A stretch of 64,000 nucleotides of DNA from Candidatus Aegiribacteria sp. GTDB taxonomy: Bacteria > Planctomycetota > Phycisphaerae > Sedimentisphaerales > Anaerobacaceae. Numbering within the stretch: the stretch's first letter is position 1; each line of letters opens with the position of its first letter. Under the pieces are notes generated by a model, which was given only the letters and a program-made list of their open reading frames with translations, made no database searches and was not told the DNA's origin. The translations under genes and the position numbers were made by a program. The stretch covers positions 2,532 through 66,531 of the forward strand of contig JAIVYN010000001.1 of assembly GCA_048635425.1 (NCBI GenBank), written 5' to 3'. Positions 18,901-55,675 of this stretch are shown piece after piece.

Positions 18901-20181
18901 AATTCTCTTGTGCGTGAATTTTTTTTTTGCATCGCTGCCAACATAATCAGCTACGACCTGGCCGGTGCCTACAAGTTTCCATTTATAAATGACAAGTCCT
19001 TCCAGCCCTACCGGCCCGCGGGCGTGTATCTTGTTGGTGCTTATGCCCACTTCAGCCCCAAGGCCGTAACGGAAGCCGTCGGCAAAGCGCGTGCTGCAGT
19101 TCCAGAGCACATTTGCAGAATCGACCAGGGCCATAAAGCTGTCGGCCTTTTCCTTATCAGCGGTAACAATGCTGTCAGTATGTCCTGACCCGTAATGGTT
19201 AATATGCTCAATCGCCTGTTCAAGGCCATCGACGATTTTTATCGAAAGGATATAATCCAGATACTCGGTTGACCAATCTTCTTCGACCGCCGGCTGTACA
19301 TCGATTATTGATACTGTTTTCTCGCAGCCGCGTAGCTGAACGCCTTTTTCCTCAAGAGCGGTTTTGACTTTCGGCAGGAACTTTTCAGCAATTTTATTAT
19401 CTACCAATAGCGTTTCCGCGGCATTACAGACAGCGACGTACTGGCACTTGGAATCGACGGTGATATTCACAGCCATATCCAAATCAGCATCGCTGTCTAT
19501 ATAAACGTGGCATATACCGTCAGCGTGCCCGAGGACGGGTATATTGGTATTGTCCATAATATAACGAACGAATTCATTTGACCCGCGGGGGATAACAAGG
19601 TCGATATATTCATCTAAGGCCAACATCTGGGCAACGTCCTGGCGGGTTTCCAATAGCTGAATCCATCCATTGGGTAGTCCGGCTTTTTCGCTCGCCTCGG
19701 AGATTGTCTCGGCTAAGATTCTATTGGTTTTTGCGGCTTCGCTTCCGCCTTTCAGCAGAACGGCATTTCCGCTTTTTAAGCAAAGCGTTGAGATTTGCAC
19801 AAGGGCGTCCGGCCGAGATTCAAAAACAACGCCGATAACGCCAATCGGACAACTGACTTTGTAAAGTTCGAGCCCCTTGTCGAGTTCGGTGGCGGTGATT
19901 GTTTTACCAACAGGGTCATCAATTTTGATAAGACTGTCGATGCCGGCACAAACATCAGCTATTTTACCTTCGTCAAACTTTAGCCGTTTGAGTAAAGGTC
20001 CAGCCAGGTTGTTCTTTTCAGCCGTGACCAGGTCCTCTTTGTTGGCTGAGACGATTTCAGCGCTGTGTTGCTTCAGGGCTTTGCCAATCTCGGCTAAAGC
20101 GTTGTTCTTTACATCGGTCCTGGCCACTGCCAGTTGGATCGAGGCTGACCCGGCTGCCGCGGCTATTTCGGAAATATTCAT
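18886..20181 (-). CDS. proA: Gamma-glutamyl phosphate reductase
   Basis: 431 aa of the aldehyde dehydrogenase superfamily. ProA-typical VIGVVFESRPDA, and CNAAETLLV with the catalytic Cys. Confidence 0.9.
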   Translation of the reverse strand: MNISEIAAAAGSASIQLAVARTDVKNNALAEIGKALKQHSAEIVSANKEDLVTAEKNNLAGPLLKRLKFDEGKIADVCAGIDSLIKIDDPVGKTITATELDKGLELYKVSCPIGVIGVVFESRPDALVQISTLCLKSGNAVLLKGGSEAAKTNRILAETISEASEKAGLPNGWIQLLETRQDVAQMLALDEYIDLVIPRGSNEFVRYIMDNTNIPVLGHADGICHVYIDSDADLDMAVNITVDSKCQYVAVCNAAETLLVDNKIAEKFLPKVKTALEEKGVQLRGCEKTVSIIDVQPAVEEDWSTEYLDYILSIKIVDGLEQAIEHINHYGSGHTDSIVTADKEKADSFMALVDSANVLWNCSTRFADGFRYGLGAEVGISTNKIHARGPVGLEGLVIYKWKLVGTGQVVADYVGSDAKKKFTHKRIVSGE

Positions 20182-20238
20182 TTTTAATTTACCATTGACT
20201 ATTTATCGTTAAATACCTATATTCGATTGCCGAATTGT

Positions 20239-20266
20239 AAATAATAAATAATCAATAATCAATATC
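20239..20266. repeat. Heptamer tandem tract, AATAATC family
   Basis: AAATAAT AAATAAT CAATAAT CAATATC, upstream of proA and next to tRNA-Gly. Confidence 0.6.
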
Positions 20267-20320
20267 GAAGTCGAAGATACGCCGTAGCGGGAATCCACTA
20301 TAGGCGGAATTAATTGTATT

Positions 20321-20391
20321 GCGGGCGTAGCTCAATGGCAGAGCATCGGCCTTCCAAGCCGAGTATGTGGGTTCGATCCCCATCGCCCGCT
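20321..20391 (+). tRNA. tRNA-Gly (anticodon TCC)
   Basis: GCGGGCGTAGCTCAATGGCAGAGCATCGGCCTTCCAAGCCGAGTATGTGGGTTCGATCCCCATCGCCCGCT. It folds as a cloverleaf by hand, with anticodon loop CTTCCAA. Confidence 0.9.
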
Positions 20392-20628
20392 TTTGTTTTG
20401 AGAGTCTTTTCCCTTTAAGTGTTTCTTTAGTATCACCCGGATTTTCTTGTTGGTTTTGGATGAATTGTTGCGAAATTAACAGGGCCCTGTGGAAAACGGT
20501 GGGGAGTTGGAAAAAATAATCAGCTCTGCTAAAAGTATTATATTTTCGTAAGCACTTCTGTTTGCGTGAATTATGTCCTTTCAGGGACCGTCCTATAATA
20601 AAATTTTTCAAAAAAGAATATTTGTTTG

Positions 20629-20681
20629 TTGACAAAGTGGTAGGAAGTGGTACGATTTCCCACATTGAATATATCAAGTGG
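20629..20681 (+). promoter_or_regulatory. Candidate Pmra promoter with three AAGTGG boxes (MraZ-type operator)
   Basis: TTGACA 20629-20634 and TACGAT 20651-20656. AAGTGG occurs at 20635, 20645 (10-nt phasing) and 20676. An inverted TGTGGG lies at about 20657-20662. The mraZ ATG is at 20692. Confidence 0.5.
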
Positions 20682-20691
20682 GACTAATGCC

Positions 20692-21165
20692 ATGCTTTTA
20701 TTAACAGGCGAATATCTTCACGTTGTCGACAACAAAAGCAGAGTTCTCATCTCGAACAAGCTGAGAAATCAGATTGATGTCGATAAGCACGGCAGTAATT
20801 TCTATCTTATACTCGGGGCAAACGGCATACTTTGTTTATATCCCGAAAAGTATTTCGAGCAGATAGCCCTTGCGGTTACACCCGGTACTACCGCCCCTGA
20901 TGAGGCTGTAGCGTTCGAGCGAATCAGCTTTGCTTTGGCCAGTAAGGTGGAGCTGGACGGCCAGGGCCGATTGCTCCTGAATGAAAGATTGCGAAAGAGG
21001 GCGGGGTTGAAAGACCACATTACACTTATCGGCGTTAGAGACCATATCGAGCTGTGGAACAGTGAAAGCTGGGAACAATATCTTTCAGACCATATGGCTC
21101 AATATCAGAAACAGATGTCGCAGGCAAGGCAGGTTGTCCTGCACGAGCAGAGCGAAGATATTTAA
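20692..21165 (+). CDS. mraZ: Transcriptional regulator MraZ
   Basis: Start trimmed to the ATG at 20692 (MLLLTGEYLHVVDNKSRVLISNKLR...). Two SpoVT/AbrB-like halves each carry a D/G-x-x-x-R-type motif (DNKSRVLI, DGQGRLLL). It is followed by rsmH. Confidence 0.85.
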   Translation: MLLLTGEYLHVVDNKSRVLISNKLRNQIDVDKHGSNFYLILGANGILCLYPEKYFEQIALAVTPGTTAPDEAVAFERISFALASKVELDGQGRLLLNERLRKRAGLKDHITLIGVRDHIELWNSESWEQYLSDHMAQYQKQMSQARQVVLHEQSEDI

Positions 21166-21183
21166 TTTTTAAGTGGAGGCAAA

Positions 21184-21393
21184 ATGATTGGAATGGATTC
21201 GAATCATTGTCGGATTGTTGCCGGAAGTCTCGTCGGTGAAAGGGAGGTTGACGAACGGACCTTCGCCTCCCTGGCAATTATCGGAGAACGGCTGGAACGG
21301 TTGAAGGAAATCGACGAGACTTTTTCCGGCATTGAATTTTCACCCGCTGTTGAGAAACTTCAAGGGCAGAAGAACACCATAGCTATAGGCTGA
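21184..21393 (+). CDS. Hypothetical 69-aa protein between mraZ and rsmH
   Basis: GGAGG lies 4 nt before the ATG. The product is acidic and helical with no recognisable family. Confidence 0.35.
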   Translation: MIGMDSNHCRIVAGSLVGEREVDERTFASLAIIGERLERLKEIDETFSGIEFSPAVEKLQGQKNTIAIG

Positions 21394-21464
21394 CTTGTAA
21401 TGCGTTCCGCCTAATGCGGATCTTCAATGTTAGTGTTGAGTATCGCGCTCCCATTCATCGTGGC

Positions 21465-21520
21465 GCGATACGATATACGCGATGTAAAATACGATATACG
21501 ATATATGCGATACGATAGAA
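21465..21520. repeat. Heptamer tandem tract, GATATAC family (8 units) abutting the rsmH start
   Basis: GCGATAC GATATAC GCGATGT AAAATAC GATATAC GATATAT GCGATAC GATAGAA, then the GTG start at 21521. Confidence 0.75.
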
Positions 21521-22426
21521 GTGAATGGCTCGATAATAGAGCATATTCCGGTTCTCGCTGAGATATTGGCCGAGCAGATAAAACTGCCACCGGATGGCAT
21601 AATGGTCGATGCGACCATAGGACATGGAGGTCATAGTTATCTGTTCGGCAAGACCTTGGGCCCTGAGGGAGTTATCGTAGGCCTGGATGTCGATAAAAAT
21701 GCTATCCGAAGGGCCCAATTTATATTAAAGGACCTTGCCTGTAAGGTTATTTTGCTTCATTCGAATTTTTCTCTAATCAGCGAGCAGGTCCATGAGCAGG
21801 GTATAGATAAAGTTGATTTCATATTGGCGGATTTGGGGCTTTGTTCGGCACAGTTGGCTGACAGCCGGATGGGGCTCAGTTTTCTTCAAGATATGCCGCT
21901 GGATATGAGAATTGACAAAAGATTAAAGAGCACCGCTGCCGATATAGTTAATAAAGCAAATGAAAAGTCCTTAGCTGATTTGATATACAAATTCGGCCAG
22001 GACAGGGCCTCACGGCGAATTGCACGGTTTATCGTGCGGGAACGAGAAAGTGGGCTGATCACCACGACCGGCCAACTGGCAAAGATAGTCTGCAAGGCGC
22101 TGGGAAGGGCCCAGCGAAACCGAAAAAGTAAGATACACCCGGCAACCAGGACTTTCCAAGCGCTGAGAATTGCGGTCAATGACGAATTAGAGAATTTGAA
22201 GAAGCTGCTTGCTTCGGTGCCGGAGCTGTTGAGCAAAAATGGTTATATAGCAGTCATTAGCTATCACAGTCTGGAAGATAGATTGGTTAAAAACGATTTT
22301 AAGCGAAACGGAAAGGACAATATTTACAGGGTCATTACGAAAAAACCGATTGTGGCAACGCGAGAGGAAATTGCTGAAAATCGTCGGGCAAGAAGCGCAA
22401 AATTAAGGATTGCACAGAAACAATAA
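21521..22426 (+). CDS. rsmH: 16S rRNA (cytosine1402-N4)-methyltransferase
   Basis: 301 aa with DATIGHGGHS, DLGLCSAQL and SYHSLEDRLVK motifs. dcw position after mraZ. Confidence 0.9.
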   Translation: MNGSIIEHIPVLAEILAEQIKLPPDGIMVDATIGHGGHSYLFGKTLGPEGVIVGLDVDKNAIRRAQFILKDLACKVILLHSNFSLISEQVHEQGIDKVDFILADLGLCSAQLADSRMGLSFLQDMPLDMRIDKRLKSTAADIVNKANEKSLADLIYKFGQDRASRRIARFIVRERESGLITTTGQLAKIVCKALGRAQRNRKSKIHPATRTFQALRIAVNDELENLKKLLASVPELLSKNGYIAVISYHSLEDRLVKNDFKRNGKDNIYRVITKKPIVATREEIAENRRARSAKLRIAQKQ

Positions 22427-22440
22427 TATGGAGTTTCATT

Positions 22441-23295
22441 ATGACTTCCGATGCCAAGATTGGGTTGCTGTTAGGTTTGGTCTTTATATTTATAATTGCA
22501 TTTGTAATAAACGGCCTGCCGCGCTTTCGCAGTAACACAAACAATAATGAGCTGACAACTAATATGGTCAGCTCGCCAAACGACTCGATGGGTATTGCAG
22601 CCAAGGAACGTAAAGCTCAGGCGGTGTTCGATCTTGTAGAGCGGGTCCCACAAGAACGTGCTGATGAAGTGCCGGTCGTCTCAAAGAACGAGGGAGCGGT
22701 TCGCTTCAAAATGCCCTTTTCGCAAGGCACTTCGGCTGTGAAAGATGACTTGATTGTAGAGACTGCCAATGACAGGGTAAAGCCGCCGGCCCCGGTATCC
22801 CGAACCAATGAGAAAACCAGAGTCAATAAATCCAAGCCCGCTTTGCCAAAGACCTATGTAGTTAGCGAAGATGATAACCTGGCTATCATAGCGCGAAAAT
22901 TTTACGGCCCAGAGAAGGGTAATAAGAAAGTAAACGTTGCCCGGATATTCGAGGCCAATCGCAAATTGTTGAAATCACTCGATGAGATTTATGTCGGGCA
23001 AAAACTTACTATCCCGCCGCTTATAGATAAATCAGGCAGCGTATTTTCAGGGTCGCTGTTCGAGAAAGTGAAATCCATCAGCCGTAAACTTACTTCGTCT
23101 GATAAAACTAAGGCACCCAGGGAGACGCGGAGCAAACAATACGTTGTACGGGAAGGTGATAGTTTATGGCGAATTGCTGTTGAGCAGCTTGGAGATGGTA
23201 CTCGCTACAAGGAGTTAAATGAGCTAAATGCCGATATTTTAGGGAACGAAGACTATCTTGCTGTTGGGATGAGTTTGAGAATACCGGCTCGATAA
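22441..23295 (+). CDS. Membrane-anchored protein with two LysM domains
   Basis: N-terminal TM helix (IGLLLGLVFIFIIAFVI). Two LysM motifs (YVVSEDDNLAIIARKFYG...GQKLTIP and YVVREGDSLWRIAVEQLG...GMSLRIP). Confidence 0.75.
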   Translation: MTSDAKIGLLLGLVFIFIIAFVINGLPRFRSNTNNNELTTNMVSSPNDSMGIAAKERKAQAVFDLVERVPQERADEVPVVSKNEGAVRFKMPFSQGTSAVKDDLIVETANDRVKPPAPVSRTNEKTRVNKSKPALPKTYVVSEDDNLAIIARKFYGPEKGNKKVNVARIFEANRKLLKSLDEIYVGQKLTIPPLIDKSGSVFSGSLFEKVKSISRKLTSSDKTKAPRETRSKQYVVREGDSLWRIAVEQLGDGTRYKELNELNADILGNEDYLAVGMSLRIPAR

Positions 23296-23321
23296 GAATG
23301 GCGGATATGAAATTAGAAGTC

Positions 23322-23569
23322 CGAAGTACGAAACAAAATCAAGTGAACTAAAGTGCCTAAAGTGAACTAAAGTGAGCTAAAGTCAACGTGGTTATCAGGT
23401 TATCATGACATCAGGTAGTGGTTATCAGGTTACCAAGATATCAGGTTAACTTTTTTTTTCCTGGTATCCTGATTTCCTGATATCCTGCAACCTGATTTCC
23501 TGATATCCATATTTTAGGCACTTTAGGCACTCTAAACTTTAGTCACTTTGATCTTGTTTCGGATTTCGA
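23322..23569. repeat. Large imperfect palindrome built from 8-10-nt words (copy 1)
   Basis: Left arm: CTAAAGTGNN words, then GGTTATCAGG-like words. Centre: T9 at 23451-23459. Right arm: CCTGATWT words, then TTTAGGCAC words. The core 23348-23530 is homologous to the reverse complement of 30428-30625. Confidence 0.75.
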
Positions 23570-23630
23570 TACGCCTGTTAGAAGCGTATGTATCCATATT
23601 CGATATTCGAATTTATATTTTAGGCGTTAT

Positions 23631-23861
23631 ATGGCGTCCCGATTTCACCTTGTTTTTGTTGTTTTTTGTTTCACGGCGGTTTTGATTTTTGCTGTTTATC
23701 TGCGTAATGCCAACAATCGCATTTTCTACGAGCTTTGCACCTGCAGGGGCGAACAAAGCCGATTAAAACAGGAGCTTGGCACTAAGCAATTGCTGTTGGA
23801 AGGTTTAATAAATCCCGCTGCGCTTTCGCGGCGATTTGACGAATTAAATACCAACGAATAA
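23631..23861 (+). CDS. ftsL: FtsL-like small bitopic protein
   Basis: 76 aa with one TM helix (LVFVVFCFTAVLIFAVY) followed by a short coiled coil. It sits immediately upstream of ftsI. Called on position and architecture only. Confidence 0.5.
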   Translation: MASRFHLVFVVFCFTAVLIFAVYLRNANNRIFYELCTCRGEQSRLKQELGTKQLLLEGLINPAALSRRFDELNTNE

Positions 23862-23864
23862 AAG

Positions 23865-25607
23865 TTGAAAAGCGTTCGAATTACCATTCTTTTCTCTTTG
23901 CTTCTCATCGGCGTATTTCTGGCGCTGGCAGGGCGGTGCTTTTATCTGCAGTTTCTCAGGAACGACCATTATATTGGCAAGTGTCTCGAACAGCAGCAGG
24001 GGTGGGTGCCCTACAAGCCTCAGCGCGGCGTGATTCTTGATTGCCGCGGCAGAGTGCTCGCTGCGAGTAACAAGGTCCGAATTGTTAAAGTTGAGCCTCG
24101 AAGGGTCAAAGACCCCAAAGATTTATCGAGTGAGCTCCAGCCGATATTGGGTATGGGTGCGCACGAAATCTGTAAACTTATCAACGAAAGCAACAACCCG
24201 GGATATGTAAAAATCAAGGCGGATGCCAAGCCGGGTGAATGTGATGCCGCCCGCAGAATTTCAAGCGCCGTCGGCGTCGAATCTGATTGGCAACGACATT
24301 ATCCAATGGGTCGATTAGCCGTGCACGCTGTTGGTTTTACGAGTCTTGATAATCGGGGGTTAGACGGCATTGAGTACCAATACGACAAACAGCTCAGCGG
24401 TTCGGCGGCACAGGATATATTCTTTGCAGACGTGCGTCGCCGGCCCATTCGCCCGGCGCCTCTTGAGCATAGTCCGGCGGATAATAACGATGTGGAGAAC
24501 GCCGTTTTAACCGATGGCGTCGGGATTATTTTGACCATTGATGCTACTATCCAGCAGTTTGCCAGAGATGAGCTTATAAAGCAATACGAAAACTACGAGG
24601 CCGAGTCGGCTGTGGCGATTGTGGTTGAGCCAAAGACCGGGGCAATTTTGGCGATGGTTTCGCTGCCTGATTTCGACCCTGCCCAGGCCCGTTCGAGTGA
24701 CCCTGATAATCGCCGTAACCGGATTTTAACCGATGAGTTCGAGCCGGGCAGTATTATAAAGCCGCTCGTGGCCGCGATTGCCCTTGATGCAGGCGCTGTG
24801 AACAAGGTTGAAAAAATATTCTGCGAAAACGGGAACTATTCCGGCAGAGGTTTTGGGCGAATCGGAGAATATGAAAGAGGCTTCGGCGATTTGACTTTGC
24901 GGGAGATTCTGGTTGAGTCCAGCAATATAGGAATGGCAAAAATCGGACAGAGGCTCGGCAAAGACAAACTTTATAAAGGGCTGAGACTTTTCGGTTTCGG
25001 CAAAAAAGCAGGGATTGACGTCCCCGGCGAGGCTGATGGGCTGTTGCGAGGCACGCACAAGTGGACGGGATACAGCGTAACCCGGATACCTTTTGGTCAG
25101 GAAATTACTGTAACTGCGATTCAATTGGTTCGGTCTTTCTGCATACTTGCCAATCGCGGTCGTATCGTTCGCCCGTTTATGGTCAGAGCGATTGTTGACA
25201 ACGACGGAGAGATTACCGAGCTAAAACGGCCTCTGCCGCCGGTGGGTTACGTAGTAAAGCCGGAAGTCGCCGAATGGATTGTCAGCGAGGCTATGGTCGG
25301 TGTGGTTAATGAGGGAACTGGCAAAAGAGCCAAGCTGGAGAGATGGCAGGTCTTCGGGAAAACGGGAACAGCCAACATTGCAAAAAGCGATGAACGAGGT
25401 TATTCGGACAGTGATTATGTGGTTTCCTTTATAGCCGGTGCGCCGGCGGAGGACCCGGCCATAGTGGTTTTGGTTTCCGTCCGCAAGCCGAACAAGAAGC
25501 TCGGCAAAGGCTATACCGGCGGAGTTGTGGCCTCTCCGGTGGCGGGGAAAATAATCGAAAAAACACTCAACTACCTCGAAACCCGATTTGCCCGGGCGAA
25601 CTTCTGA
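23865..25607 (+). CDS. ftsI: Class B penicillin-binding protein (FtsI/PBP3-like transpeptidase)
   Basis: 580 aa with a TTG start 3 nt after the ftsL stop. N-terminal TM helix. S-x-x-K (GSIIKP), S-x-N (SSN) and KTG (GKTGTA) motifs. Confidence 0.85.
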   Translation: MKSVRITILFSLLLIGVFLALAGRCFYLQFLRNDHYIGKCLEQQQGWVPYKPQRGVILDCRGRVLAASNKVRIVKVEPRRVKDPKDLSSELQPILGMGAHEICKLINESNNPGYVKIKADAKPGECDAARRISSAVGVESDWQRHYPMGRLAVHAVGFTSLDNRGLDGIEYQYDKQLSGSAAQDIFFADVRRRPIRPAPLEHSPADNNDVENAVLTDGVGIILTIDATIQQFARDELIKQYENYEAESAVAIVVEPKTGAILAMVSLPDFDPAQARSSDPDNRRNRILTDEFEPGSIIKPLVAAIALDAGAVNKVEKIFCENGNYSGRGFGRIGEYERGFGDLTLREILVESSNIGMAKIGQRLGKDKLYKGLRLFGFGKKAGIDVPGEADGLLRGTHKWTGYSVTRIPFGQEITVTAIQLVRSFCILANRGRIVRPFMVRAIVDNDGEITELKRPLPPVGYVVKPEVAEWIVSEAMVGVVNEGTGKRAKLERWQVFGKTGTANIAKSDERGYSDSDYVVSFIAGAPAEDPAIVVLVSVRKPNKKLGKGYTGGVVASPVAGKIIEKTLNYLETRFARANF

Positions 25608-25689
25608 GAAGGGTGACTAAAATAAATGGTATTTTGTACAGAGCATTATCAATTACTATTTACCAATATCCAAATTTGAATAAGAGGAA

Positions 25690-26116
25690 ATGGCCAAGAT
25701 AATCTACGCTGTTGCGGGGGAAGGGTTCGGTCACAGCAGCCGATCACACCTGATAGGGCAGAGACTTATCGATGCCGGGCACGATTGTGTCTTTGTGGGT
25801 TCACAGAAATCACTGCTCTATCTGAAACAATATTTTGGTGAGCGTGTGTATGTACCTGAAGAAGAAGATGCTGCTTCTGCCTTTGGCCGGTCAGTATGAG
25901 CAGATAATAAACGCGCATTATGTTCAAAAGCTTGGTCTGGGAATTTCGTCTGATAAATTGGATGAAGTGATTTTGGCCCGGTTCCTCGATGAGCTGGATA
26001 AGCCTATGCCGGATGATGAGAGGATTATCTGGCCTGACAATGATAAATTTTTTGATATCCTTCAACGCGAATTAAACAAACTTGATACGCCCGTGAATAT
26101 TGATTGTTCGAATTAA
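25690..26116 (+). pseudogene. Internally deleted, frameshifted GT-B glycosyltransferase (GT28/MJ1255-like)
   Basis: ORF 25690-25899 keeps only an N-terminal Gly-rich loop (IIYAVAGEGFGHSSRS...). ORF 25835-26116, in another frame, keeps only a C-terminal region (LLLPLAGQYEQIINAHYVQKLGLG...). Together they give about 140 aa where about 350 would be expected. Confidence 0.6.
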
Positions 26117-26134
26117 CCTTGCCTCAAGTTTTCT

Positions 26135-27664
26135 CTAATTGTGCCAACCCAAGAGTTCGGGATTAATCGGCAGCTTTATGTCGTCCTTCGTACCAATTTT
26201 ACCGTCCGGCCCGGGGCTTAATATCAATCTTTTTTCGATATCAATAATATACTCATCGCTAAAATCGCGGGCTTTTAAGCTCACCTCTTCGCCGAGCCTT
26301 TTATTCAAAACGACCTGGAGCATATCCGAATGTATTTGCAGCTTCTTTTTAATGACAAATATTTTTTCAAGGGCAGGTCTGAATATTCCAACCAGCAAAA
26401 TTCCGGATGGATTATATACCTCATAATACCATGGGAATTTACCTTGGTTATCAGTTTTAACGGGTAGATTGGGATAAAAAGCAGGCCAGACCCTCATTTC
26501 TTTTGGCGGAGTTTGATTTTCTTCATCGGCGATCCATTTATCAATGATATTTCTGTACAGCCTTAATGAAGAATTCAATTTCAGGGGGGAAAAATATGGA
26601 TTTCTACGAACTGTTTTGTTTGAAGCGTTTATTGTTTCATTTTTAAGGATAAGATACTCGAACATCAGCGAATTTCGAAGTGAGGTATGCTCGTTTGAAA
26701 GAGGGGTTATACGCTGTTTTAAGGCCAAGAGAGATTCGGTCGGTGTTTCAGGATTGTTTATGATAAAGTTTGCGATATTAATATCAATAACAAAACAGGA
26801 AATACATAGAAACTTTATAATTATAGAATGGGCATTTAAATTCATCTTCCTGAATAATGAATCCAATCTAATCAATTCGTTGATTGCTATTTCGTGGTTT
26901 CCTTTGCAGCTTTGCAGGCAAATATATGACTGATATAGAAAGACGAGGTGTCTTATGTTTGCTAAATAGGGAATATCAATTTTCAACTTTGGTTTAGTCA
27001 GGTCCGCAATTTCAGGAAATGAGTCGAGTTTGGTGAAAACATCTCTTCCTTTTCGGGCTTTTTCCCAAAGTAAAAGAATATCTTTTTCGTTTTCCTGGAG
27101 TTGCTGTGATATATTTTGGAGGTCATCTTGCGTAAAAATATTATGAATTTCATCGTTCTTTGTGATGTCTTTGGTTGAAAACCCTATGGCATATCCAGAG
27201 TTATGGAATTTCTTATCAGACAGATTATTTAGCAGGACAAAAGTCTGATTGTATTGTCCTGCGGCAGATTTAAGGTCGTTGATTGTATAATCGTCGGGAA
27301 TCGGAGCGGCGTCAATGCACAAATAAGTTGAAATGACTGCAAAAAAGGATCCGAGAATAAGGACCACGATCGTGATGACGTTTATGATTCGGATTTTCTT
27401 TTTTTTATTATTTTTCCGAAGGACCTCTGGGATAGCTGCAATTACAAAACACAGGGCAAATATAGCCGCGAAGAAAGCCGAAACCGGTTTTAGAAAAAGG
27501 ACGAGAGTGCCGGACAAGACGATTAGTGCAAAGGAAACAACTTGAAATAATTTTTTGTAATTATGTTCTGATTGTTTGGTATCAGAGCTTGCTAAAGCAA
27601 AACTGCAAGAGTGGCATAATAGGGCATCATCGGGATTTTCGTTTCCACATTTTGGGCATTGCAT
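26135..27664 (-). CDS. Zinc-ribbon membrane protein with a large extracytoplasmic helical domain (unknown function)
   Basis: 509 aa. N-terminal MQCPKCGNENPDDALLCHSCSF (CxxC...CxxC). About three TM helices. C-terminal ...SPGPDGKIGTKDDIKL. Its ATG directly abuts the mrdA stop (TAA 27665-27667, ATG 27664-27662). It is AT-rich. Confidence 0.6.
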   Translation of the reverse strand: MQCPKCGNENPDDALLCHSCSFALASSDTKQSEHNYKKLFQVVSFALIVLSGTLVLFLKPVSAFFAAIFALCFVIAAIPEVLRKNNKKKKIRIINVITIVVLILGSFFAVISTYLCIDAAPIPDDYTINDLKSAAGQYNQTFVLLNNLSDKKFHNSGYAIGFSTKDITKNDEIHNIFTQDDLQNISQQLQENEKDILLLWEKARKGRDVFTKLDSFPEIADLTKPKLKIDIPYLANIRHLVFLYQSYICLQSCKGNHEIAINELIRLDSLFRKMNLNAHSIIIKFLCISCFVIDINIANFIINNPETPTESLLALKQRITPLSNEHTSLRNSLMFEYLILKNETINASNKTVRRNPYFSPLKLNSSLRLYRNIIDKWIADEENQTPPKEMRVWPAFYPNLPVKTDNQGKFPWYYEVYNPSGILLVGIFRPALEKIFVIKKKLQIHSDMLQVVLNKRLGEEVSLKARDFSDEYIIDIEKRLILSPGPDGKIGTKDDIKLPINPELLGWHN

Positions 27665-29806
27665 TTACATTCCCTCTGTGGTTAGAGCTTTGCCTACATA
27701 TCCGGCGTCGATGCAGAACTGGATGATGTCGCGGGCTAAAGGAGCGGCGTCGCTTGAGCCGTGCTGGCCGCCTTCGACGACGACGGCGATTGCGATACTC
27801 CGGTTTGACCCGTCAGTTGCAAAGCCTCCGAACCAGGCGGTCTCCGGGGCTTGCGTTGAGCCGGTTTTGCCGTAAACCTTTAGGTCCTGCTCGGCAAGAC
27901 TTGTAAGAATCGGTTGGAATGTAGTGTAAGCTGTTCCACCGGTCTCATTAACCACAGCGCTCATGCCATCATAAACTACTTTTAAAGTCTGTAGTGAAAT
28001 ACCAAGGTCGATGGTATCAAATCCGGGATTATTTGGCTCATCCATAAACAGGCGGGGTGGTCTATACGCACCGCCTCGGGCGATAGCGGCCATTGCATTT
28101 GCTACCTGTAAAGGCGTAACTCGCAGATTGCCCTGGCCTATGCCGAACCATCTTCTTTCGCTGTCACTAAGCGGTGGCACTTGCTCAAAATTTGAGATTG
28201 GGCCCTTTGGGATAGTGTTTGAGATTACGCCTGATAATTGCCGGAGGTTCCTGCTGAGTTCGGTTTCGGCAATAGAAGCCGGCGGAAAAAGTATGTTTCG
28301 GCCGTAGCCGAATTTAAATAGCCATTGCTGAAGGACCAGAGGATCGATTCTATCTGCAAGGTGGGAAAAATAAATATTGCAACTACCTCTGATTGCGTTG
28401 CGAGCGTTGTTTTCCCACCTGCCGTCATGGCCTGCTCTGTATCTATTGTACAGCCAGCAGCTTGGCCAGTTTTTTGGGGCCTTCTGAGCCGGGCAGCCTA
28501 TAACCTCATCAGGTGTGATTTTGCCGGACTCGAGCCCAGCGATAAGAATCAACGGTTTTACAACTGAGCCGGGCGGGTACCACTTATTTATTGCTCGATT
28601 TATTAAAGGCTTGTCCGGGTCGTTAGCGAGGTCGCTGTAGTCATACCTGGCACGGTTCAAATCAAACACCGGTATCGAAACCAATGCGAGAATATCACCT
28701 GTACCAACCTCGATGACAACCGCCGACATTCCGGGTCCGCAACTCGGTTCGTGGTTGTATGTGGTCAGATAGTTTTCTATTCTTTGCTGAAGCTTGATAT
28801 CCAGCGTCAGCGAAACGTCTTTGCCAAACCGGCTCCTGGTTCGACTTATAAGCTGACTGTCTATATCGTAAATGAGCTCCCCTCGTCTGCCGCGAAGGAT
28901 GGTTTCGCAAACATACTCAACTCCATCCTCTCGGCCGCAAATCTCTCCGCGTAAATAGCTCGATAGTTTGTCGTCTTCGAAGAGCCCTTTATCTTCTTCG
29001 TTGTGTGTTACCAGCCCGACCCAGCCTATAGTTTGGGCGGCAGCCGTCCCATACGGGTATGTCCTTCGTGCTTTTGGCAGAATCTGAATATCATCGACAT
29101 TTAAAAACTCCAGTTGAGCGGCAAAGATATCATCATCGGTTTTTAAATCAAGCAGCGGCCAGGGCTTGTACATCTCGGCGATATCAACTTTACTCACAAG
29201 TCGGAATCGCTTTTGGCGGTCTGGTTCCTTTTTCTCAAAATCAGCTATTGCTACATAGACCGGAATGCTGATTCTACTGTCATAGTTTTGAAAAACTTCA
29301 GAATTTGGGAATTTGCGTCGCCAGGCCTGAAACGTGCGATGATTCCAGATTATATCGTTTATTTTCTGTATTTCGTTTTTTATCTCAGTAGGTTCGACTC
29401 CTTTGAATTGAGCACACTTGTTGATTATCTGGTTCAAATCTGTTAGGACGATATCAAGCTCTTTTTGTACATTAGCTACAGCATCTGGATCTTCTTTTTC
29501 GGCGGCGCTTGCTAATCTGCCTTGACGGATGCGGTCGTCCATAAAACACGTGAGCTTGTAATTTATACACAGTTGAAACTGTGGTTCATCAGTGGCTAAT
29601 GCTTTGTCTTTGTTGCCTGTTCTGTCGAGTATTTTGCCTCGGACTGTTTTAAGCTCCTGGGATTGACCTCTTTGGCGTTTTAGCTCCTCGATATCACTTT
29701 GGACCGAAGATGTTGGAAGAAGCTGCATTTGTGTCAGGCGGAGCAAACAGACCAGTAAAAGCAAGGCACTTATGATTACAAAAATTTTGATTCGCTTATC
29801 GTACAT
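27665..29806 (-). CDS. mrdA: Penicillin-binding protein 2 (elongation transpeptidase)
   Basis: 713 aa with an N-terminal TM helix. S-x-x-K (GSVVKP), S-x-N (SCN) and KTG (GKTGST) motifs. It follows mreD. Confidence 0.85.
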   Translation of the reverse strand: MYDKRIKIFVIISALLLLVCLLRLTQMQLLPTSSVQSDIEELKRQRGQSQELKTVRGKILDRTGNKDKALATDEPQFQLCINYKLTCFMDDRIRQGRLASAAEKEDPDAVANVQKELDIVLTDLNQIINKCAQFKGVEPTEIKNEIQKINDIIWNHRTFQAWRRKFPNSEVFQNYDSRISIPVYVAIADFEKKEPDRQKRFRLVSKVDIAEMYKPWPLLDLKTDDDIFAAQLEFLNVDDIQILPKARRTYPYGTAAAQTIGWVGLVTHNEEDKGLFEDDKLSSYLRGEICGREDGVEYVCETILRGRRGELIYDIDSQLISRTRSRFGKDVSLTLDIKLQQRIENYLTTYNHEPSCGPGMSAVVIEVGTGDILALVSIPVFDLNRARYDYSDLANDPDKPLINRAINKWYPPGSVVKPLILIAGLESGKITPDEVIGCPAQKAPKNWPSCWLYNRYRAGHDGRWENNARNAIRGSCNIYFSHLADRIDPLVLQQWLFKFGYGRNILFPPASIAETELSRNLRQLSGVISNTIPKGPISNFEQVPPLSDSERRWFGIGQGNLRVTPLQVANAMAAIARGGAYRPPRLFMDEPNNPGFDTIDLGISLQTLKVVYDGMSAVVNETGGTAYTTFQPILTSLAEQDLKVYGKTGSTQAPETAWFGGFATDGSNRSIAIAVVVEGGQHGSSDAAPLARDIIQFCIDAGYVGKALTTEGM

Positions 29807-29867
29807 TATATTCTGTCTTTAGTGATACGTGCTTCAATTCGTAATTCGGCATTTTCGGGGTGAGGGT

Positions 29868-30350
29868 TTAACGTCGGCTGAAGCGATGTATCTTTATACG
29901 CATCCACCAGGCTGACGGCAAAAATAAAAACGGTCCCACCAGGGCCGAGTACAGAGCTATCCCGAAAAGAGCGGCGTATATTTTTGGTGGTGTCGGCTCA
30001 CCCTTTAGAAAATTTAAGAAATAGACCAGCGAGCCGGCCAAAAGGGCTGTGATGAATATCGCAAGGAATTGATAAGTCATTTTTCTAATAGCAATAACCC
30101 CGTGAAGGTAGGCCAGGGCCGTGCCGAGAACACCAAAGCTAATCATTTGCGGGCCCATCGTGCGACCAATAAGGTCCGCAGCGAAACCTATTGTGAAGGA
30201 AGTTATGATGGCCTCCGAGGTATTGCAGTAGACAGCAAAGAATACCAAAAGTATTAACAACAAATCAGGCTTGACATTCAAATCTGCAAAAAAGCTGGCC
30301 TGCAGTAAGGTAGCAAGAAGAATTAAAACTGCAAACCGGAACCATCGCAT
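29868..30350 (-). CDS. mreD: Rod shape-determining protein MreD
   Basis: 160-aa polytopic membrane protein (PDLLLILLVFFAV...) in the canonical position after mreC. Confidence 0.75.
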   Translation of the reverse strand: MRWFRFAVLILLATLLQASFFADLNVKPDLLLILLVFFAVYCNTSEAIITSFTIGFAADLIGRTMGPQMISFGVLGTALAYLHGVIAIRKMTYQFLAIFITALLAGSLVYFLNFLKGEPTPPKIYAALFGIALYSALVGPFLFLPSAWWMRIKIHRFSRR

Positions 30351-30427
30351 TTATATATCCTCGGCCGTTTACATCTTAAAATCTATCGCAGAAGAACGCT
30401 ACAGCGTAACTTAATAACAATTCAACC

Positions 30428-30625
30428 AAGGTGCCTAAAATATGCATATCAGCAAATCAGGAAATCAGGGTGCAGTCCACAGGACACCTTACGGTGGATA
30501 TCAGGGAATCCGGATACCAGCAAAAAAACAAATTTAACCTGATATCCTGGTAACCTGACAACCACTACCTGATGTCCTGATAACCGGATAACCACGCTGA
30601 CTTTAGCTCACTTTAGGCACTTTAG
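30428..30625. repeat. Large imperfect palindrome built from 8-10-nt words (copy 2, inverted on the + strand)
   Basis: The reverse complement of 30531-30625 matches 23367-23450 with 6 mismatches in 84 nt by hand alignment. The centre is A7 at 30523-30529. The terminal word overlaps the mreC stop codon. Confidence 0.75.
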
Positions 30626-31416
30626 CGCACCTCTGACGGATTCATCACGATTACGGCTACGTTCTCTGCCTTTTGTATGTTACAAACCGGTTCGACCATT
30701 ATGTCCCAAACCAAAGGTTGGACATTGTGTTCACATCGAAACACTTTTCCGATAATAATAGGTGTATCCAGGAACCCAGGTCTTTTACTGGCCATAATCT
30801 CAGTGTCGATTTTGACTTTGTGCTTTATCATTTCTACCTTGGCTAAGTTGTTGCCATTGCCTTGCATGAGCCAATCTGAGCCGCCAATTCTTACGGCTGT
30901 GCTGGATTTTGGGTCGGTAAACAGCCTAACCTTGGCGGTGCGGGCATCCACATCAGATATGGTTCCGATGACACTGTTGTCGGCCAGAACGAATTGGCCC
31001 TTAGCCAGGCCGTCATCCCGGCCGCGGTTGATGATAAGCTCGCTGCGCAGCTCGTTGATAGAGACAGTAATCACATCAGCCGGCACAAAGCCCATTCGTT
31101 CCCAGCCGGGTATGTTGCGCATTTTTGAGAGCTTTTGTACATTTTGCTGCGCATCATTACGCTGCTGCGTAACGTTGGCAAGATGGTTTAGTAGTCTTTC
31201 GTATTCATCTCGACTGACCACATCTCCAAGTTGCTGGCGTGTACCGGCCGAAAGTGAAATGTTTCTGCCAATGCTTAAGGGCCAGTTGAAAATGCGGTGA
31301 AAAGCAAACTGGAATTTATTCGTCAGATTTTTCGGAGAGAAAAGGAAAATGAACCCGGCTAACGTGAACCAGGTAAACAACATTCGTCTGGAGACTCTAA
31401 TTTGCTTCCTTGCCAT
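30622..31416 (-). CDS. mreC: Rod shape-determining protein MreC
   Basis: 264 aa with an N-terminal TM helix, a coiled coil, then beta-rich domains. It lies between mreB and mreD. Confidence 0.75.
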   Translation of the reverse strand: MARKQIRVSRRMLFTWFTLAGFIFLFSPKNLTNKFQFAFHRIFNWPLSIGRNISLSAGTRQQLGDVVSRDEYERLLNHLANVTQQRNDAQQNVQKLSKMRNIPGWERMGFVPADVITVSINELRSELIINRGRDDGLAKGQFVLADNSVIGTISDVDARTAKVRLFTDPKSSTAVRIGGSDWLMQGNGNNLAKVEMIKHKVKIDTEIMASKRPGFLDTPIIIGKVFRCEHNVQPLVWDIMVEPVCNIQKAENVAVIVMNPSEVR

Positions 31417-31419
31417 TAT

Positions 31420-31496
31420 CGTATTGCGTGTTGCGTATTTCGTATTTCGTATTGCGTATTACGCACGACGCATCAAACACGACGCACTACGAATCA
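31420..31496. repeat. Heptamer tandem tract, CGTATTK family (11 units) spanning the whole mreB-mreC spacer
   Basis: CGTATTG CGTGTTG CGTATTT CGTATTT CGTATTG CGTATTA CGCACGA CGCATCA AACACGA CGCACTA CGAATCA. It runs from the mreC start region into the mreB stop. Confidence 0.8.
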
Positions 31497-32549
31497 TTCC
31501 CATCCGTATTCGTTATGGTCCATCGTATCCTTCCACAACTCCAGATTTTCAAGATAGACACTGGTACCGCGAGCTACGCAGCTTAGCGGGTCCTCCACTA
31601 TTTCGACCTTCAGGCCGGTTGCATTTGCCAGGACCGTATCCATTCCACGAAGCAGTGAGCCGCCGCCGCAAATGTGTACGCCGTTGTCGATGAGGTCGGC
31701 GGCCAATTCCGGCTCGGCCTTTTCCAGCGTTGTGGTGACCGTATCTATAATGGTAGCGATGGGGTCGCGGAGTGACTCTCTGATTTCCTCACTGGTAATA
31801 ACGATTTTTCTGGGCAGACCGGAGATGGTGTCTCTGCCGGCCACTTCCATCGTCAATTCCTCTTCCAGCGGAGCGGCGGAGCCGATTTGTATCTTTACTT
31901 TTTCAGCCCTTGCCTCGCCGATGAGCAGGTTGTAAGTTTTCTTAAGATGATTGATTACCGCTTCATCCATATCGTCGCCCCCGATTCGAATTGATTCGGA
32001 GGTGGCGATATCGGCCAGACTCATTATGGCCACTTCGGTCGTTCCTCCTCCGATATCCACAATCAACGAAGCGGTGGGGTCTGTAATTGGCAGTCCGGCT
32101 CCGATTCCTGCGGCCATCGGTTCATCGACAAGAAAGACTTTGCGGGCACCTGCACGTTCGGCACTATCTATCACTGCCCGGCGTTCAACAGCAGTTATTC
32201 CGCTTGGTACCGCGATTACGACTCGCGGCCTGACAAGACCGCCCCTGCCGTGCACCTTCCTGATAAAATAGCCTAACATCGCTTCGGTGATTTCGAAGTC
32301 ACTGATTACGCCGTCTTTCAGAGGTCTTATTGCGCTAATCGAGCCTGGCGTTTTGCCTAACATTTCACGGGCAACCAGGCCGACAGCTTCGCCATTATTC
32401 AGGACAATGTTGGTTCCTTTGCGGACGGCAACTACGGAGGGCTCATTGAGGACAATACCTTTATCCCTGACACAAACCAGGGTAGTGCAGGTACCAAGGT
32501 CGATACCCATATCCATACTGAACCAACCTAAGATTGTGTCCAGCACCAC
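31494..32549 (-). CDS. mreB: Actin-like rod shape-determining protein MreB
   Basis: 351 aa with GIDLGTCTTLV, DIGGGTTEVA and CGGGSLLRG motifs. GTG start with AAGGAG 6 nt upstream. Confidence 0.9.
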   Translation of the reverse strand: MVLDTILGWFSMDMGIDLGTCTTLVCVRDKGIVLNEPSVVAVRKGTNIVLNNGEAVGLVAREMLGKTPGSISAIRPLKDGVISDFEITEAMLGYFIRKVHGRGGLVRPRVVIAVPSGITAVERRAVIDSAERAGARKVFLVDEPMAAGIGAGLPITDPTASLIVDIGGGTTEVAIMSLADIATSESIRIGGDDMDEAVINHLKKTYNLLIGEARAEKVKIQIGSAAPLEEELTMEVAGRDTISGLPRKIVITSEEIRESLRDPIATIIDTVTTTLEKAEPELAADLIDNGVHICGGGSLLRGMDTVLANATGLKVEIVEDPLSCVARGTSVYLENLELWKDTMDHNEYGWE

Positions 32550-32589
32550 TTTCGACTCCTTTCTTAATTTCCAATTTAGAGACTTACAG

Positions 32590-32613
32590 AGGGACCCCGC
32601 AAGGCGGGAACCC
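32590..32613 (-). other. Conserved 24-nt stem-loop motif in the mreB leader (copy 1)
   Basis: Transcribed strand: GGGUUCCCGC-CUU-GCGGGGUCCCU. A second copy at 45991-46014 carries a compensatory base-pair change. Confidence 0.4.
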
Positions 32614-32638
32614 GAACCGCAATTTCTAACTGGCTATC

Positions 32639-32666
32639 TTTATATACTAAAGAGCGGTATTGTCAA
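32639..32666 (-). promoter_or_regulatory. Candidate mreB promoter
   Basis: On the minus strand: TTGACA (32666-32661), 16-nt spacer, TATAAA (32644-32639). This lies about 90 nt upstream of the mreB start. Confidence 0.45.
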
Positions 32667-32678
32667 TAGTGAAATTTA

Positions 32679-32828
32679 CTATGGTATTTCGAATAACACA
32701 CCATACTGTGTATAGCACTGGTAAGCGACAAACGCTGCAGTAGCCAGAACTGCACAAAACGCCAAAGCAAGAATAATCGTATAGAGGTTATCCGGTACTG
32801 TTACCTTTTTGCCGCGAGCCTGCCCATT
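32679..32828 (-). CDS. Candidate 49-aa single-pass membrane protein
   Basis: Hand translation: MGRARGKKVTVPDNLYTIILALAFCAVLATAAFVAYQCYTQYGVLFEIP-stop. Basic N-terminus plus one TM helix. The SD is weak and the ORF is below the track cutoff. Confidence 0.3.
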   Translation of the reverse strand, partial: NGQARGKKVTVPDNLYTIILALAFCAVLATAAFVAYQCYTQYGVLFEIP

Positions 32829-32877
32829 AGGACTCATATATCAACCTCACATAGTATAAACACATCTTTTGGTTTTT

Positions 32878-33756
32878 CTACAAATTAGTACTGGCGTTAT
32901 CGCCGGCTTTCGGCTGTTCCTTTGTAACGTCCATAAGCTCCAGGGTGCCGATTGCTTTTTCAGGCTCAACGTCTAAAATCACAATGTCACAAATAAACTT
33001 ATCGGCGCGAGTTACGTGGAATGTCATATTTTGCTTGACACCGTTTGCTGCGCCGATGGATATCTCAGCTAAAGAATTTCCCAGGTCCACCGCGGTTATC
33101 AATCCATTCAAGCTGATATCTACTGTTGGGGGGGCTACCTGAGCTTTCTCTTTTGTCGGTGTAACCGGTTCGGGAGCGGCAACAGCTTTGCCGGCTTGTT
33201 GTAGGAGCTGGTTTAACCTGTTTTGCAAGTCTGTTTTTTCTTCGAGTAGTTGTTTCGATTGTTTGTCCAGGTCGTCAATTATTGCCATTTTCTCGATAAG
33301 AGCGGCTGTGGTTTCTTTGAGTTCTTTGTCTGACTGAATTTGGTCAAGCTGGATTTTCTTTAGCTCAGCGAGGGTATCTTTTAATAGCTGCCTTTGCTTC
33401 TCATTGGTGTCTAAAAAGCTTCCGGTTGCGGCCGTCCATTTATCCGCGTCATTAAACCAAGCCGCTTTTTGTTTTTCAGCCTCGGTGAGTTTTTTGTCTA
33501 ATTGCCCGACCTGGGTTTTAAGGGCGCTAATATCACTTTTTAGCTTCCGTTCCTCCTCGGCGGCATCCTCAATTGTTTTATTTTTATCTTTTACGGCTTG
33601 TTCCTTATTCTGCTCTGCAGCATCTTTTAGCCTCCTTTCGTCAAGATATTTTTTTCTGTAGTTTTCAGCATTGGCGACATAAGTCACGACAATACCGCAG
33701 AGAAAAATCGAGGATATCGTCAGCAGAACTATTAAGATCTTTGTAAGCGTGCTCAA
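32878..33756 (-). CDS. Membrane-anchored coiled-coil protein (unknown function) upstream of mreB
   Basis: 292 aa. N-terminal TM helix (ILIVLLTISSIFLCGIVV), about 170 aa of heptad-rich K/E/Q sequence, and a C-terminal beta-rich domain. Confidence 0.5.
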   Translation of the reverse strand: MSTLTKILIVLLTISSIFLCGIVVTYVANAENYRKKYLDERRLKDAAEQNKEQAVKDKNKTIEDAAEEERKLKSDISALKTQVGQLDKKLTEAEKQKAAWFNDADKWTAATGSFLDTNEKQRQLLKDTLAELKKIQLDQIQSDKELKETTAALIEKMAIIDDLDKQSKQLLEEKTDLQNRLNQLLQQAGKAVAAPEPVTPTKEKAQVAPPTVDISLNGLITAVDLGNSLAEISIGAANGVKQNMTFHVTRADKFICDIVILDVEPEKAIGTLELMDVTKEQPKAGDNASTNL

Positions 33757-34069
33757 AACATGCTCCTTTCGTTAACTTTGTGTTTTCTTTTCAATACACC
33801 CATTACCCCACGAGAGGGCATCATAAACGCGATAAAAGGGTTTGCAGAACCTCCATTTTGCCCGTCACCAATTATTTGTGAGCCTGAACTCAATTAGTAT
33901 AGACTGGCAAAATGCGGCCTCCAGCCCGGATATTATATGTATATACTACAATTTTACGCTTAAAGCTCGGAAAGGTCAAGTTATTTTTGGCAAATACCCC
34001 AAATTAAAATGGACGATGAAAAATGGACGGTGCTTAATCCGATAACATAGGATTTTCAGGGGGCAATTG

Positions 34070-37960: not shown

Positions 37961-38083
37961 AGCGATATGTTACAACCTGGCGATGACTTTGCAAGGGGAA
38001 TTGAAATTTCGCTGATTGCTATTCTGGATACTTCGCTTTGCTCAGTGCAGGCTCCGCACGGCAAAGTGAAAAATCTCTTGTCT

Positions 38084-55645: not shown

Positions 55646-55675
55646 TTGCATTTCTGCGACTGAGTGTATTATAAT
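55646..55675 (+). promoter_or_regulatory. Candidate promoter of pseudopilin paralog 2
   Basis: TTGCAT (55646-55651), 18-nt spacer, TATAAT (55670-55675). Identical in paralog 3. Confidence 0.5.

Follow-up and report, generated by a model that had tools for sequence, protein, structure and literature searches.

The window analysed here, a stretch of 64,000 nucleotides (nt) from contig JAIVYN010000001.1 of Candidatus Aegiribacteria sp., contains at positions 26135..27664 of the minus strand an open reading frame (ORF) that directly follows the penicillin-binding protein 2 (PBP2) gene mrdA and is referred to below as the target gene. It was found to encode a 509-amino acid (aa) protein with a zinc ribbon, three transmembrane (TM) helices, a helical ectodomain and a small α/β C-terminal module, and it represents one of two cassette types, designated class A and class B, that we found downstream of mrdA in related bacteria; the target is of class B. 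Pfam and NCBIfam searches confirmed the mreB-mreC-mreD-mrdA cluster named in a first-pass annotation of this DNA, with mreB (31494-32549), mreC (30622-31416), mreD (29868-30350) and mrdA (27665..29806) all on the minus strand. The 713-aa PBP2 matched the Pfam families Transpeptidase and PBP_dimer and the TIGR03423 model (pbp2_mrdA, E = 9.6e-88). Convergent to the target gene, on the plus strand, lies an ftsI-like class B PBP gene (23865..25607), also recognised by Pfam and NCBIfam, which is the last intact gene of a mraZ-rsmH-LysM-ftsL-like-ftsI series; this convergent arrangement was seen in most related loci. As evident from the minus-strand sequence at the junction (GGA ATG TAA-ATG CAA TGC; 27662..27667), the ATG of the target gene immediately follows the TAA of mrdA, with a Shine-Dalgarno (SD)-like GAGGG located 7 nt 5' of the ATG. 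The abutting codons and the 509-aa reading frame had both been noted in the first-pass annotation, and the sequence and the translation agree with it.

AlphaFold2 modelling of the target protein from a 60-sequence alignment gave a predicted local distance difference test score (pLDDT) of 85.8 and a predicted template modelling score of 0.78. The protein begins with a cytoplasmic zinc ribbon (residues 1-22; 27599..27664, minus strand), identified from Pfam and homologue conservation, whose cysteines C3, C6, C17 and C20 are invariant or at least 90% conserved in 60 homologues. The Zn_Ribbon_1 profile (PF13240) scored 23.5 bits on the window protein, against a cut-off of 25 bits, and many target homologues carry precomputed PF13240 matches. 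Three TM helices follow within residues 35-116 (27317..27562, minus strand; modelled helices 35-57, 60-84 and 89-116), and a Lys-rich loop, RKNNKKKK, sits between TM2 and TM3. Since the positive-inside rule would assign this loop to the cytoplasm, we infer an N-in, C-out topology, in which the large domain is placed in the periplasm. The latter domain (residues 117-411; 26432..27316, minus strand) was modelled as all-helical, with helices continuing to about residue 456 and a three-stranded sheet at residues 473-499. The C-terminal module (residues 412-509; 26138..26431, minus strand) contains a long helix, this three-stranded sheet and the motif SPGPDGxxGTKDDI, and the separate model of residues 405-509 had a pLDDT of 83.9. 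The first-pass annotation had described a CxxC...CxxC ribbon, about three TM helices and a large helical extracytoplasmic domain, and had proposed that the topology be predicted; the conserved cysteines and the model bear out this description, to which the C-terminal β-sheet is an addition.

The ectodomain was the best conserved part of the target family, with the motifs IDAxPIPNDYTI, FPEIADL, ANFIINNP, LKLNS..RLYRN, YNPxG and SPGPDGxxxTKDDI. Pfam gave nothing for the ectodomain and only the sub-threshold Zn_Ribbon_1 match on the target as a whole, and NCBIfam and PADLOC held no family for the ectodomain. A Foldseek comparison of the full model with the PDB returned nothing at E <= 1e-3, the hits being generic helical repeats with TM-scores below 0.2, and a profile search of PDB sequences left the helical domain unmatched, returning zinc ribbons plus a non-significant GspG match. 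The model is best explained as a novel helical domain followed by a small α/β module. When residues 405-509 were compared separately with the PDB, the top Foldseek matches were GspG (3g20; E 0.34-0.79, TM-score 0.40-0.43) and PulG (5o2y), which were non-significant, and the profile match of positions 478-494 to GspG (3g20_A) had an E-value of 0.5. Because these two weak signals hit the same protein, we tentatively suggest that the C-terminal module may derive from a pseudopilin, which is kept as a lead and not as a finding. The GPDG...DDI motif was confined to class B within the mrdA-ftsI arrays.

The GC content of the target gene was 37.7%, compared with 47.8% for mrdA, and the gene was the lowest in GC among 44 window genes (z = -2.4). 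The median over 60-nt lines was 37%, with 32% or less in just 20% of lines; GC was reduced at all three codon positions, and I, N, K and F are abundant in the protein. The first-pass annotation had recognised the low GC content and had placed mrdA correctly at about 47%, while its figure of 22-32% for the target gene was overstated. It had also read the composition as suggesting a foreign or fast-evolving origin, of which our comparisons contradict the foreign one. GC and GC at third codon positions lay 3-14 points under those of mrdA in every locus, in genomes spanning 37%-57% GC, so that low GC is a trait of the family and not a mark of recent arrival, and phage collections, plasmid collections and IMG/VR viral contigs yielded no target-family match. 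Compared with the related locus L116 (loci are numbered with the prefix L), which has the same arrangement and a target protein of 91% aa identity, the target gene showed a ratio of nonsynonymous to synonymous divergence (dN/dS) of 0.26, alongside 0.19 for mrdA, 0.33 for mreC and 0.15 for ftsI. The gene is therefore under purifying selection, and the ORF is real and selected.

A word-indexed search retrieved 175 target homologues, nearly all full-length, with identities of 39-91%; their sources, where named, were metagenome-assembled genomes (MAGs) of Planctomycetota, Phycisphaerae or Sedimentisphaerales throughout. When 1.84 billion cluster representatives were searched exhaustively with HMMER, 292 clusters reached E <= 1e-3, of which 108 reached E <= 1e-30, and a scan of one genome per GTDB species revealed 29 target-family loci, all in planctomycete MAGs. 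By these sequence searches, the family is restricted to Sedimentisphaerales/Phycisphaerae planctomycetes. This agrees with the earlier description of the gene as lineage-specific, as all named homologues were planctomycete and most were located after mrdA. In a neighbour-joining tree of PBP2, the family was present on the deepest mrdA branches (L033 and L001), and it is old within the lineage.

The genes downstream of mrdA were compared in two sets of relatives, a comparison also proposed in the first-pass annotation, and the slot between mrdA and ftsI was found to be variable. In the target-selected set, whose loci were chosen for having the gene so that linkage counts are biased toward presence, mreBCD-mrdA lay upstream of the target family in 17 of the 23 loci with enough upstream sequence; this count includes L012, for which the longer contig L033 shows mrdA two genes upstream. 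Convergent mraZ-rsmH-LysM-ftsI genes lay downstream in most of these loci, and three of them (L005, L010 and L018) carried two tandem family copies. In L031, a family member adjoined ftsI and the 10 kb upstream contained no mrdA; a distant member followed murD in L030, and members at unrelated loci were found in L014, L022 and L024.

The second set was obtained by scanning a metagenome collection with an alignment of 14 lineage PBP2s, which yielded 80 loci with an mrdA identity of 60-92%, and separate hidden Markov models (HMMs) built for the N-terminal anchor and for the ectodomain were applied to these mrdA-selected loci. The slot held from 0 to 5 genes, and those matching the anchor HMM (35-135 bits) were all on the mrdA strand. 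Their ectodomains formed two clusters, class A with 45 ORFs of 240-405 aa and class B with 20 ORFs of ~470-515 aa when complete. Class B was complete in 15 loci and cut by the contig end in 5; it was missing from 32 loci in which both mrdA and ftsI were seen, 18 of which were without any cassette. In L037, whose PBP2 is 90% identical to that of the window, only 11 nt separate mrdA from ftsI and there is no cassette. The distribution of class B on the PBP2 tree was patchy even inside the window's clade, where class B is found in the window and in L116, class A in L036 and neither of them in L037. The 32 closed slots without class B indicate that the gene is optional and not a core elongasome component.

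Class B itself comprised two subtypes. Type 1, which is window-like, scored ~110-135 bits with the anchor HMM and ~600-660 bits with the ectodomain HMM, and type 2 scored ~40-47 and ~420-470 bits, respectively; the two may stand in tandem in one locus (L005, L010, L018 and L105), which implies an old duplication. Four long variants (P0135, P0160, P0247 and P0263) gave weak sub-threshold N-terminal matches to UPF0259/DUF975 or STN/GspD-N0. In P0160 (677 aa), the UPF0259/DUF975 match lies ahead of the class B ectodomain, and this N-terminus suggests that cassette anchors may be exchangeable. A UPF0259/DUF975-like multi-TM protein of ~240-280 aa was also sometimes present within the cassette array (L094 2764-3615, L012 56-769 and L033 4153-4866).

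Class A cassettes passed the Pfam cut-offs for Zn_Ribbon_1 and DUF4190, a few with weak DUF1559 matches, and scored 70-107 bits with the target-family N-terminal HMM. BLASTP aligned class A with two prepilin-type proteins of the window (55664-56560 and 56784-57683) at E-values of 2e-13 and 2e-9. The alignment crosses the G-FTLIE cleavage site and the α1 helix (class A letters, for example, GRGFAIGGIVVP...LMPALNRVKKQARAVSC), which indicates that class A was derived from pseudopilins; the Glu5 position is altered in class A. Judged by this alignment, class A is a pseudopilin-type domain in which a zinc ribbon and two additional TM helices have taken the place of the leader. The two window proteins, encoded in tandem on the plus strand, possess an N_methyl motif, a weak DUF1559 match and unusually long leaders of ~36 residues, and they are the closest relatives of class A ectodomains in the window. 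Between class B and class A ectodomains, hhalign detected no homology (probability 1.4%).

In 38 loci in which the cassette start could be anchored on M-x-C-x-x-C, the first cassette usually began 114-161 nt after the mrdA stop. The gap was 0 nt in one of them (L036), and L116, the nearest relative of the window with a target gene, also has the 0-nt junction. The spacer contained the motif TTCTGG-N14-22-CTATTAT followed by an SD sequence and often by AATGTAAATG. The exact motif occurred once per locus in 13 loci (L048 7100-7130, L094 1495-1525, L046 2913-2943 and 10 others), lay between mrdA and the first cassette wherever it was located, and was not present in the window. It may be a cassette promoter or leader. 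A generic promoter and terminator scan performed no better than on shuffled sequence, and Rfam gave no match in the mrdA-cassette spacer of L048 nor around the target gene.

Several relatives record how the slot has changed. Blastn showed that L038, L039, L041 and L042 are without roughly window positions 27687-26078, which include the target gene, and that the borders of this 1.6-kb presence/absence difference among close relatives are clean. In L036, a class A cassette stands behind the same junction, and its first ~60 nt, covering the zinc ribbon, are about 89% identical to those of the target gene. The order in L094 is mrdA, spacer, class A, UPF0259-like membrane protein, an orphan fragment and class B; the orphan is a 53-nt copy of the window-type mrdA 3' end (...CIDAGYVGKALTTEGM and stop) that abuts the class B ATG. 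We propose that, once the spacer had been lost, the mrdA reading frame was joined to the leader of the cassette itself, which would have created the TAA-ATG junction, and that recombination within the shared zinc-ribbon 5' end and the mrdA 3' end has swapped cassettes among related strains. Synonymous divergence (dS) from L116 was 0.19-0.22 for mrdA and the target gene (window 26135-29806 versus L116 6776-10438) and 0.03-0.12, or about half, for mreB, mreC, mreD, ftsI, LysM and rsmH of the same contig pair. The raised values suggest a recombined segment and fit the reading by spacer loss and recombination, and exchange between related strains by homologous recombination is likely. As the spacer is absent in the window's clade, the target gene there probably shares a transcript with PBP2 and may be coupled to it in translation.

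The position after mrdA is that in which a rodA gene might be sought, and the first-pass annotation had stated that the window holds no SEDS-like ORF. We reached the same result: no PF01098 match was obtained by Pfam on 40 larger window ORFs, tblastn of the window with E. coli RodA, E. coli FtsW and a lineage SEDS produced only noise (E >= 0.24), and the six-frame translation of the window contained no match to a small SEDS HMM. In a positive control, the lineage SEDS of L012 matched PF01098 at 1.1e-94, and the target gave no match. The target was rejected as a SEDS polymerase on its three TM helices and the missing PF01098 match. In addition, none of about 110 related loci, with or without the target gene, had a SEDS gene after mrdA, which removes the basis for the earlier proposal that an insertion displaced rodA; the target neither stands in for RodA nor has it displaced rodA. 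The lineage SEDS, ~70% identical across many contigs, adjoined murG in all loci examined. In L034 the ftsW-murG pair stands alone, and in L012/L033 an mreBCD-PBP2-class A-UPF0259-like-class B array faces murG and ftsW. With 169 bits to E. coli FtsW and 120 bits to RodA, this SEDS next to murG is closer to FtsW. In Verrucomicrobium spinosum and Planctopirus limnophila, the locus tags of COG0772, under which ftsW and rodA are pooled, are far from mreB/mreC and the neighbouring pbp (PMC12283558), and mrdA without an adjacent rodA is therefore ordinary in the Planctomycetes-Verrucomicrobia-Chlamydiae (PVC) superphylum.

Our preferred reading, to which we assign a probability of about 55% as a full explanation, is that the target is an accessory inner-membrane-tethered periplasmic protein and one of two cassette types in a recombination-prone slot. 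Its ~390-aa ectodomain would be held in the periplasm by a diverged Zn-ribbon/DUF4190 anchor made up of the zinc ribbon and the three TM helices, and the slot at the 3' end of mreBCD-mrdA would be filled by class A (pseudopilin/DUF1559-like) or class B cassettes. From gene position and architecture, we infer that in strains possessing it the target would serve as an optional binder, scaffold or modulator, working close to the Rod complex where membrane and peptidoglycan meet. Several points weigh against this reading. Its functional part draws on those same two features, so the link to PBP2 or peptidoglycan is putative, and repeated loss shows that the Rod system does not need the target, whose function may have nothing to do with the wall. 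The resemblance to pseudopilins is not significant by Foldseek (E 0.34), by profile (E 0.5) or by hhalign (probability 1.4%), and the promoter interpretation of the spacer motif is a pattern match. That the spacer was deleted here instead of gained elsewhere is a conclusion from parsimony and the L094 orphan fragment. Finally, the metagenome loci include near-duplicate contigs, so their counts are not independent; the optional status of the gene does not depend on exact locus counts.

The strongest challenge comes from the view that the cassettes are unrelated to the cell wall and are membrane-tethered pseudopilin-like binding proteins that persist in a permissive gap between convergent operons. 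We regard this as a serious rival, albeit an unlikely one. They would then belong to the large planctomycete expansion of DUF1559/prepilin-type proteins, in keeping with the homology of class A to the prepilin-type proteins of the window, and the copy number of 0 to 5 with tandem paralogues, the promoter-like spacer that the cassettes appear to own, the members at unrelated loci (L014, L022 and L024) and the exchangeable anchors suggested by the weak, sub-threshold UPF0259/DUF975-type N-terminus of P0160 all point the same way. This view accounts less readily for cassettes that are all oriented as mrdA, for a linkage that survives the L033 rearrangement and for selection in the window's clade having tolerated fusion into the mrdA operon. 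That counter-evidence is weak, because tandem duplication in place would also preserve orientation and linkage. The opposite view, in which the target is a dedicated lineage-specific PBP2 partner or regulator that replaces RodA in a differently organised elongasome, seems to us improbable. The abutting mrdA gene, the 17 of 23 informative genome loci with mreBCD-mrdA upstream, the retention of the cassettes with mrdA in L033 although the convergent neighbour is ftsW-murG, the distant member after murD in L030 and the purifying selection would all suit such a partner. A fixed partner is difficult to reconcile with the 32 closed mrdA-ftsI slots that lack the family, among them relatives with 79-90% identical PBP2 including L037, or with the L031 member that has no mrdA within 10 kb upstream. 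Tight coupling is clade-specific, since most relatives have the 114-161 nt spacer with its promoter-like motif, and a protein with three TM helices and no PF01098 match is no SEDS polymerase. Of the first-pass proposal that the gene encodes a partner or regulator of PBP2, the possibility stands and the fixed partnership does not.

The remaining two explanations turn on the variability of the locus. A recent foreign insertion from outside the lineage that displaced rodA after mrdA could be read into the lowest GC content of the window, the clean 1.6-kb presence/absence difference in close relatives and a dS in mrdA and the target gene about twice that of flanking genes, which would be consistent with imported DNA. 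We consider it very improbable, given that taxon-named homologues all come from the same planctomycete lineage, that the family reaches the deepest mrdA branches (L033 and L001), that its GC is low relative to mrdA in genomes from 37% to 57% GC, and that phage, plasmid and viral-contig searches gave no match. No rodA follows mrdA in the about 110 related loci, and COG0772 is far from mreB/mreC in the two other PVC bacteria (PMC12283558). What remains of the recent insertion suggested in the first-pass annotation is the polymorphism with clean borders; its recency conflicts with a family that is old in the lineage and under purifying selection. Scarcely more credible is a role of the cassettes as envelope defence or immunity factors, for instance against phage entry or peptidoglycan-targeting toxins. 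A locus that varies between strains in presence and cassette type and that recombines would fit, as would the periplasmic membrane-anchored architecture. However, PADLOC recognised neither the target nor class A nor the UPF0259-like neighbour, no toxin, phage or mobile-element genes lie nearby, and the dN/dS of 0.26 in one close pair shows no sign of diversifying selection.

The surroundings of the slot also contained several further features. Between ftsI and the target gene lies a remnant of a Glyco_trans_1_3 (PF13528) gene (25690..26116, plus strand), mapped by tblastn with the intact L116 protein and by blastn, of which only two stretches survive, residues 1-53 and 268-360, each in its own frame; L116 and many relatives have an intact copy of about 360 aa, and L037 and L055 have none at all. 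The division and cell wall (dcw) fragment of the window (20647-25607, plus strand) consists of mraZ, rsmH, a 284-aa LysM protein, a 76-aa FtsL-like ORF (23631-23861) and ftsI, and after ftsI only the glycosyltransferase remnant was found, with no mur, mraY or ftsW. Reviews describe Phycisphaerae as having retained the majority of dcw genes, the exceptions being ftsZ, ftsA, ftsB and alr (PMC12673574). A tRNA (20321-20391, plus strand) just 5' of mraZ was the sole Rfam match in window 20000-38000. Encoded upstream of mreB is a conserved 292-aa protein (32878-33756, minus strand) in which a TM helix at the N-terminus is accompanied by a long coiled coil and a C-terminal domain; it belongs to no Pfam family and is fast-evolving, with a dN/dS of 0.75 against L116. 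A small membrane ORF of ~52 aa (about 32560-32720, minus strand) stands between it and mreB, and both are syntenic in nearly all related loci. TIGR03423 aligned to PBP2 only from residue 197 (profile position 95), and this late start implies that the N-terminal pedestal region (residues ~90-200) is longer by roughly 100 residues, which are conserved across lineage PBP2s. An N6/N4 DNA methylase (37013-37960, minus strand) lies beside lnt and is syntenic in L001, with a HEPN-domain ORF (38084-38545, minus strand) beyond it.

In Phycisphaerae, binary fission proceeds without FtsZ, and the drivers of division and wall growth are an open question (PMC6952346, PMC12673574). At the present locus, the operons of the two class B PBPs converge, and the interval that separates them is a hot spot for membrane-anchored proteins of the periplasm that are specific to the lineage. 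What is new here is the ectodomain family and the cassette system beside two class B PBP genes of an FtsZ-less lineage, as distinct from a new mechanism. A more far-reaching and, in our judgement, doubtful idea is that class A and class B cassettes form a strain-variable Rod accessory module that contacts PBP2 and/or nascent peptidoglycan and tunes the site or manner of wall building in these FtsZ-less, binary-fission planctomycetes. If so, cassette swapping would change morphology or envelope properties, and a cassette protein touching PBP2 or FtsI would provide new handles on the division and wall machinery. Otherwise, the locus still provides a new ectodomain family and an unusual case of pseudopilin domains reused on a non-pilin anchor. 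It also cautions against deducing function from the gene order of one genome, as the tight TAA-ATG junction would be a clade-specific indel product.

Upon comparison with known systems, the target was found to resemble RodA and other SEDS proteins (PF01098) only in its position after mrdA, as in the mrdA-mrdB pair of E. coli; SEDS proteins have ~ten TM helices, whereas the target has three plus a large soluble ectodomain and no PF01098 match. Its N-terminus is closer to proteins with PF13240 and PF13828 anchors, in which a CxxC...CxxC ribbon is followed by short TM helices, and by HMM it is homologous to the Zn_Ribbon_1/DUF4190 anchors of neighbouring class A cassettes. The DUF4190 profile (PF13828) did not match the window protein, and precomputed PF13828 matches are present in more distant members of the target family. 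The ectodomain of ~390 aa is without counterpart in the Zn_Ribbon_1/DUF4190 families, and a literature search for DUF4190 and DUF1559 retrieved no functional data. The DUF1559/prepilin-type "H-X9-DG" proteins of Planctomycetes are represented by the class A cassettes and two window ORFs; class B shares its slot and anchor with class A and, unlike class A, is not detectably a DUF1559 protein. The major pseudopilins GspG and PulG of type II secretion combine a long helix with a small antiparallel sheet, as do the last ~100 residues of the target, whose terminal GPDGxxGTKDDI resembles the Ca-binding loop region of GspG. In contrast to GspG, the target has no prepilin leader, G-FTLIE site or hydrophobic α1N helix (Pfam gave neither an N_methyl nor a T2SSG match, and no G-F(T/S)LIE motif precedes TM3), and its module is placed after a 300-aa helical domain.

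The general layout of the target is similar to that of RodZ, LpoA and NlpI. RodZ, which is encoded with Rod genes, has a small domain in the cytoplasm that a membrane anchor connects to a periplasmic domain, and LpoA, CpoB and NlpI are periplasmic regulators of peptidoglycan enzymes with helical or tetratricopeptide repeat folds; NlpI was among the weak generic helical-repeat matches of Foldseek. Pfam and NCBIfam revealed no helix-turn-helix and no RodZ match on the target, and there was neither sequence similarity nor significant structural similarity to RodZ, LpoA, CpoB or NlpI. RodZ possesses a cytoplasmic helix-turn-helix, a single TM helix and the RodZ C-terminal domain, whereas the target carries a zinc ribbon and three TM helices. 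RodZ, LpoA, CpoB and NlpI are core and conserved proteins, whereas the target is optional.

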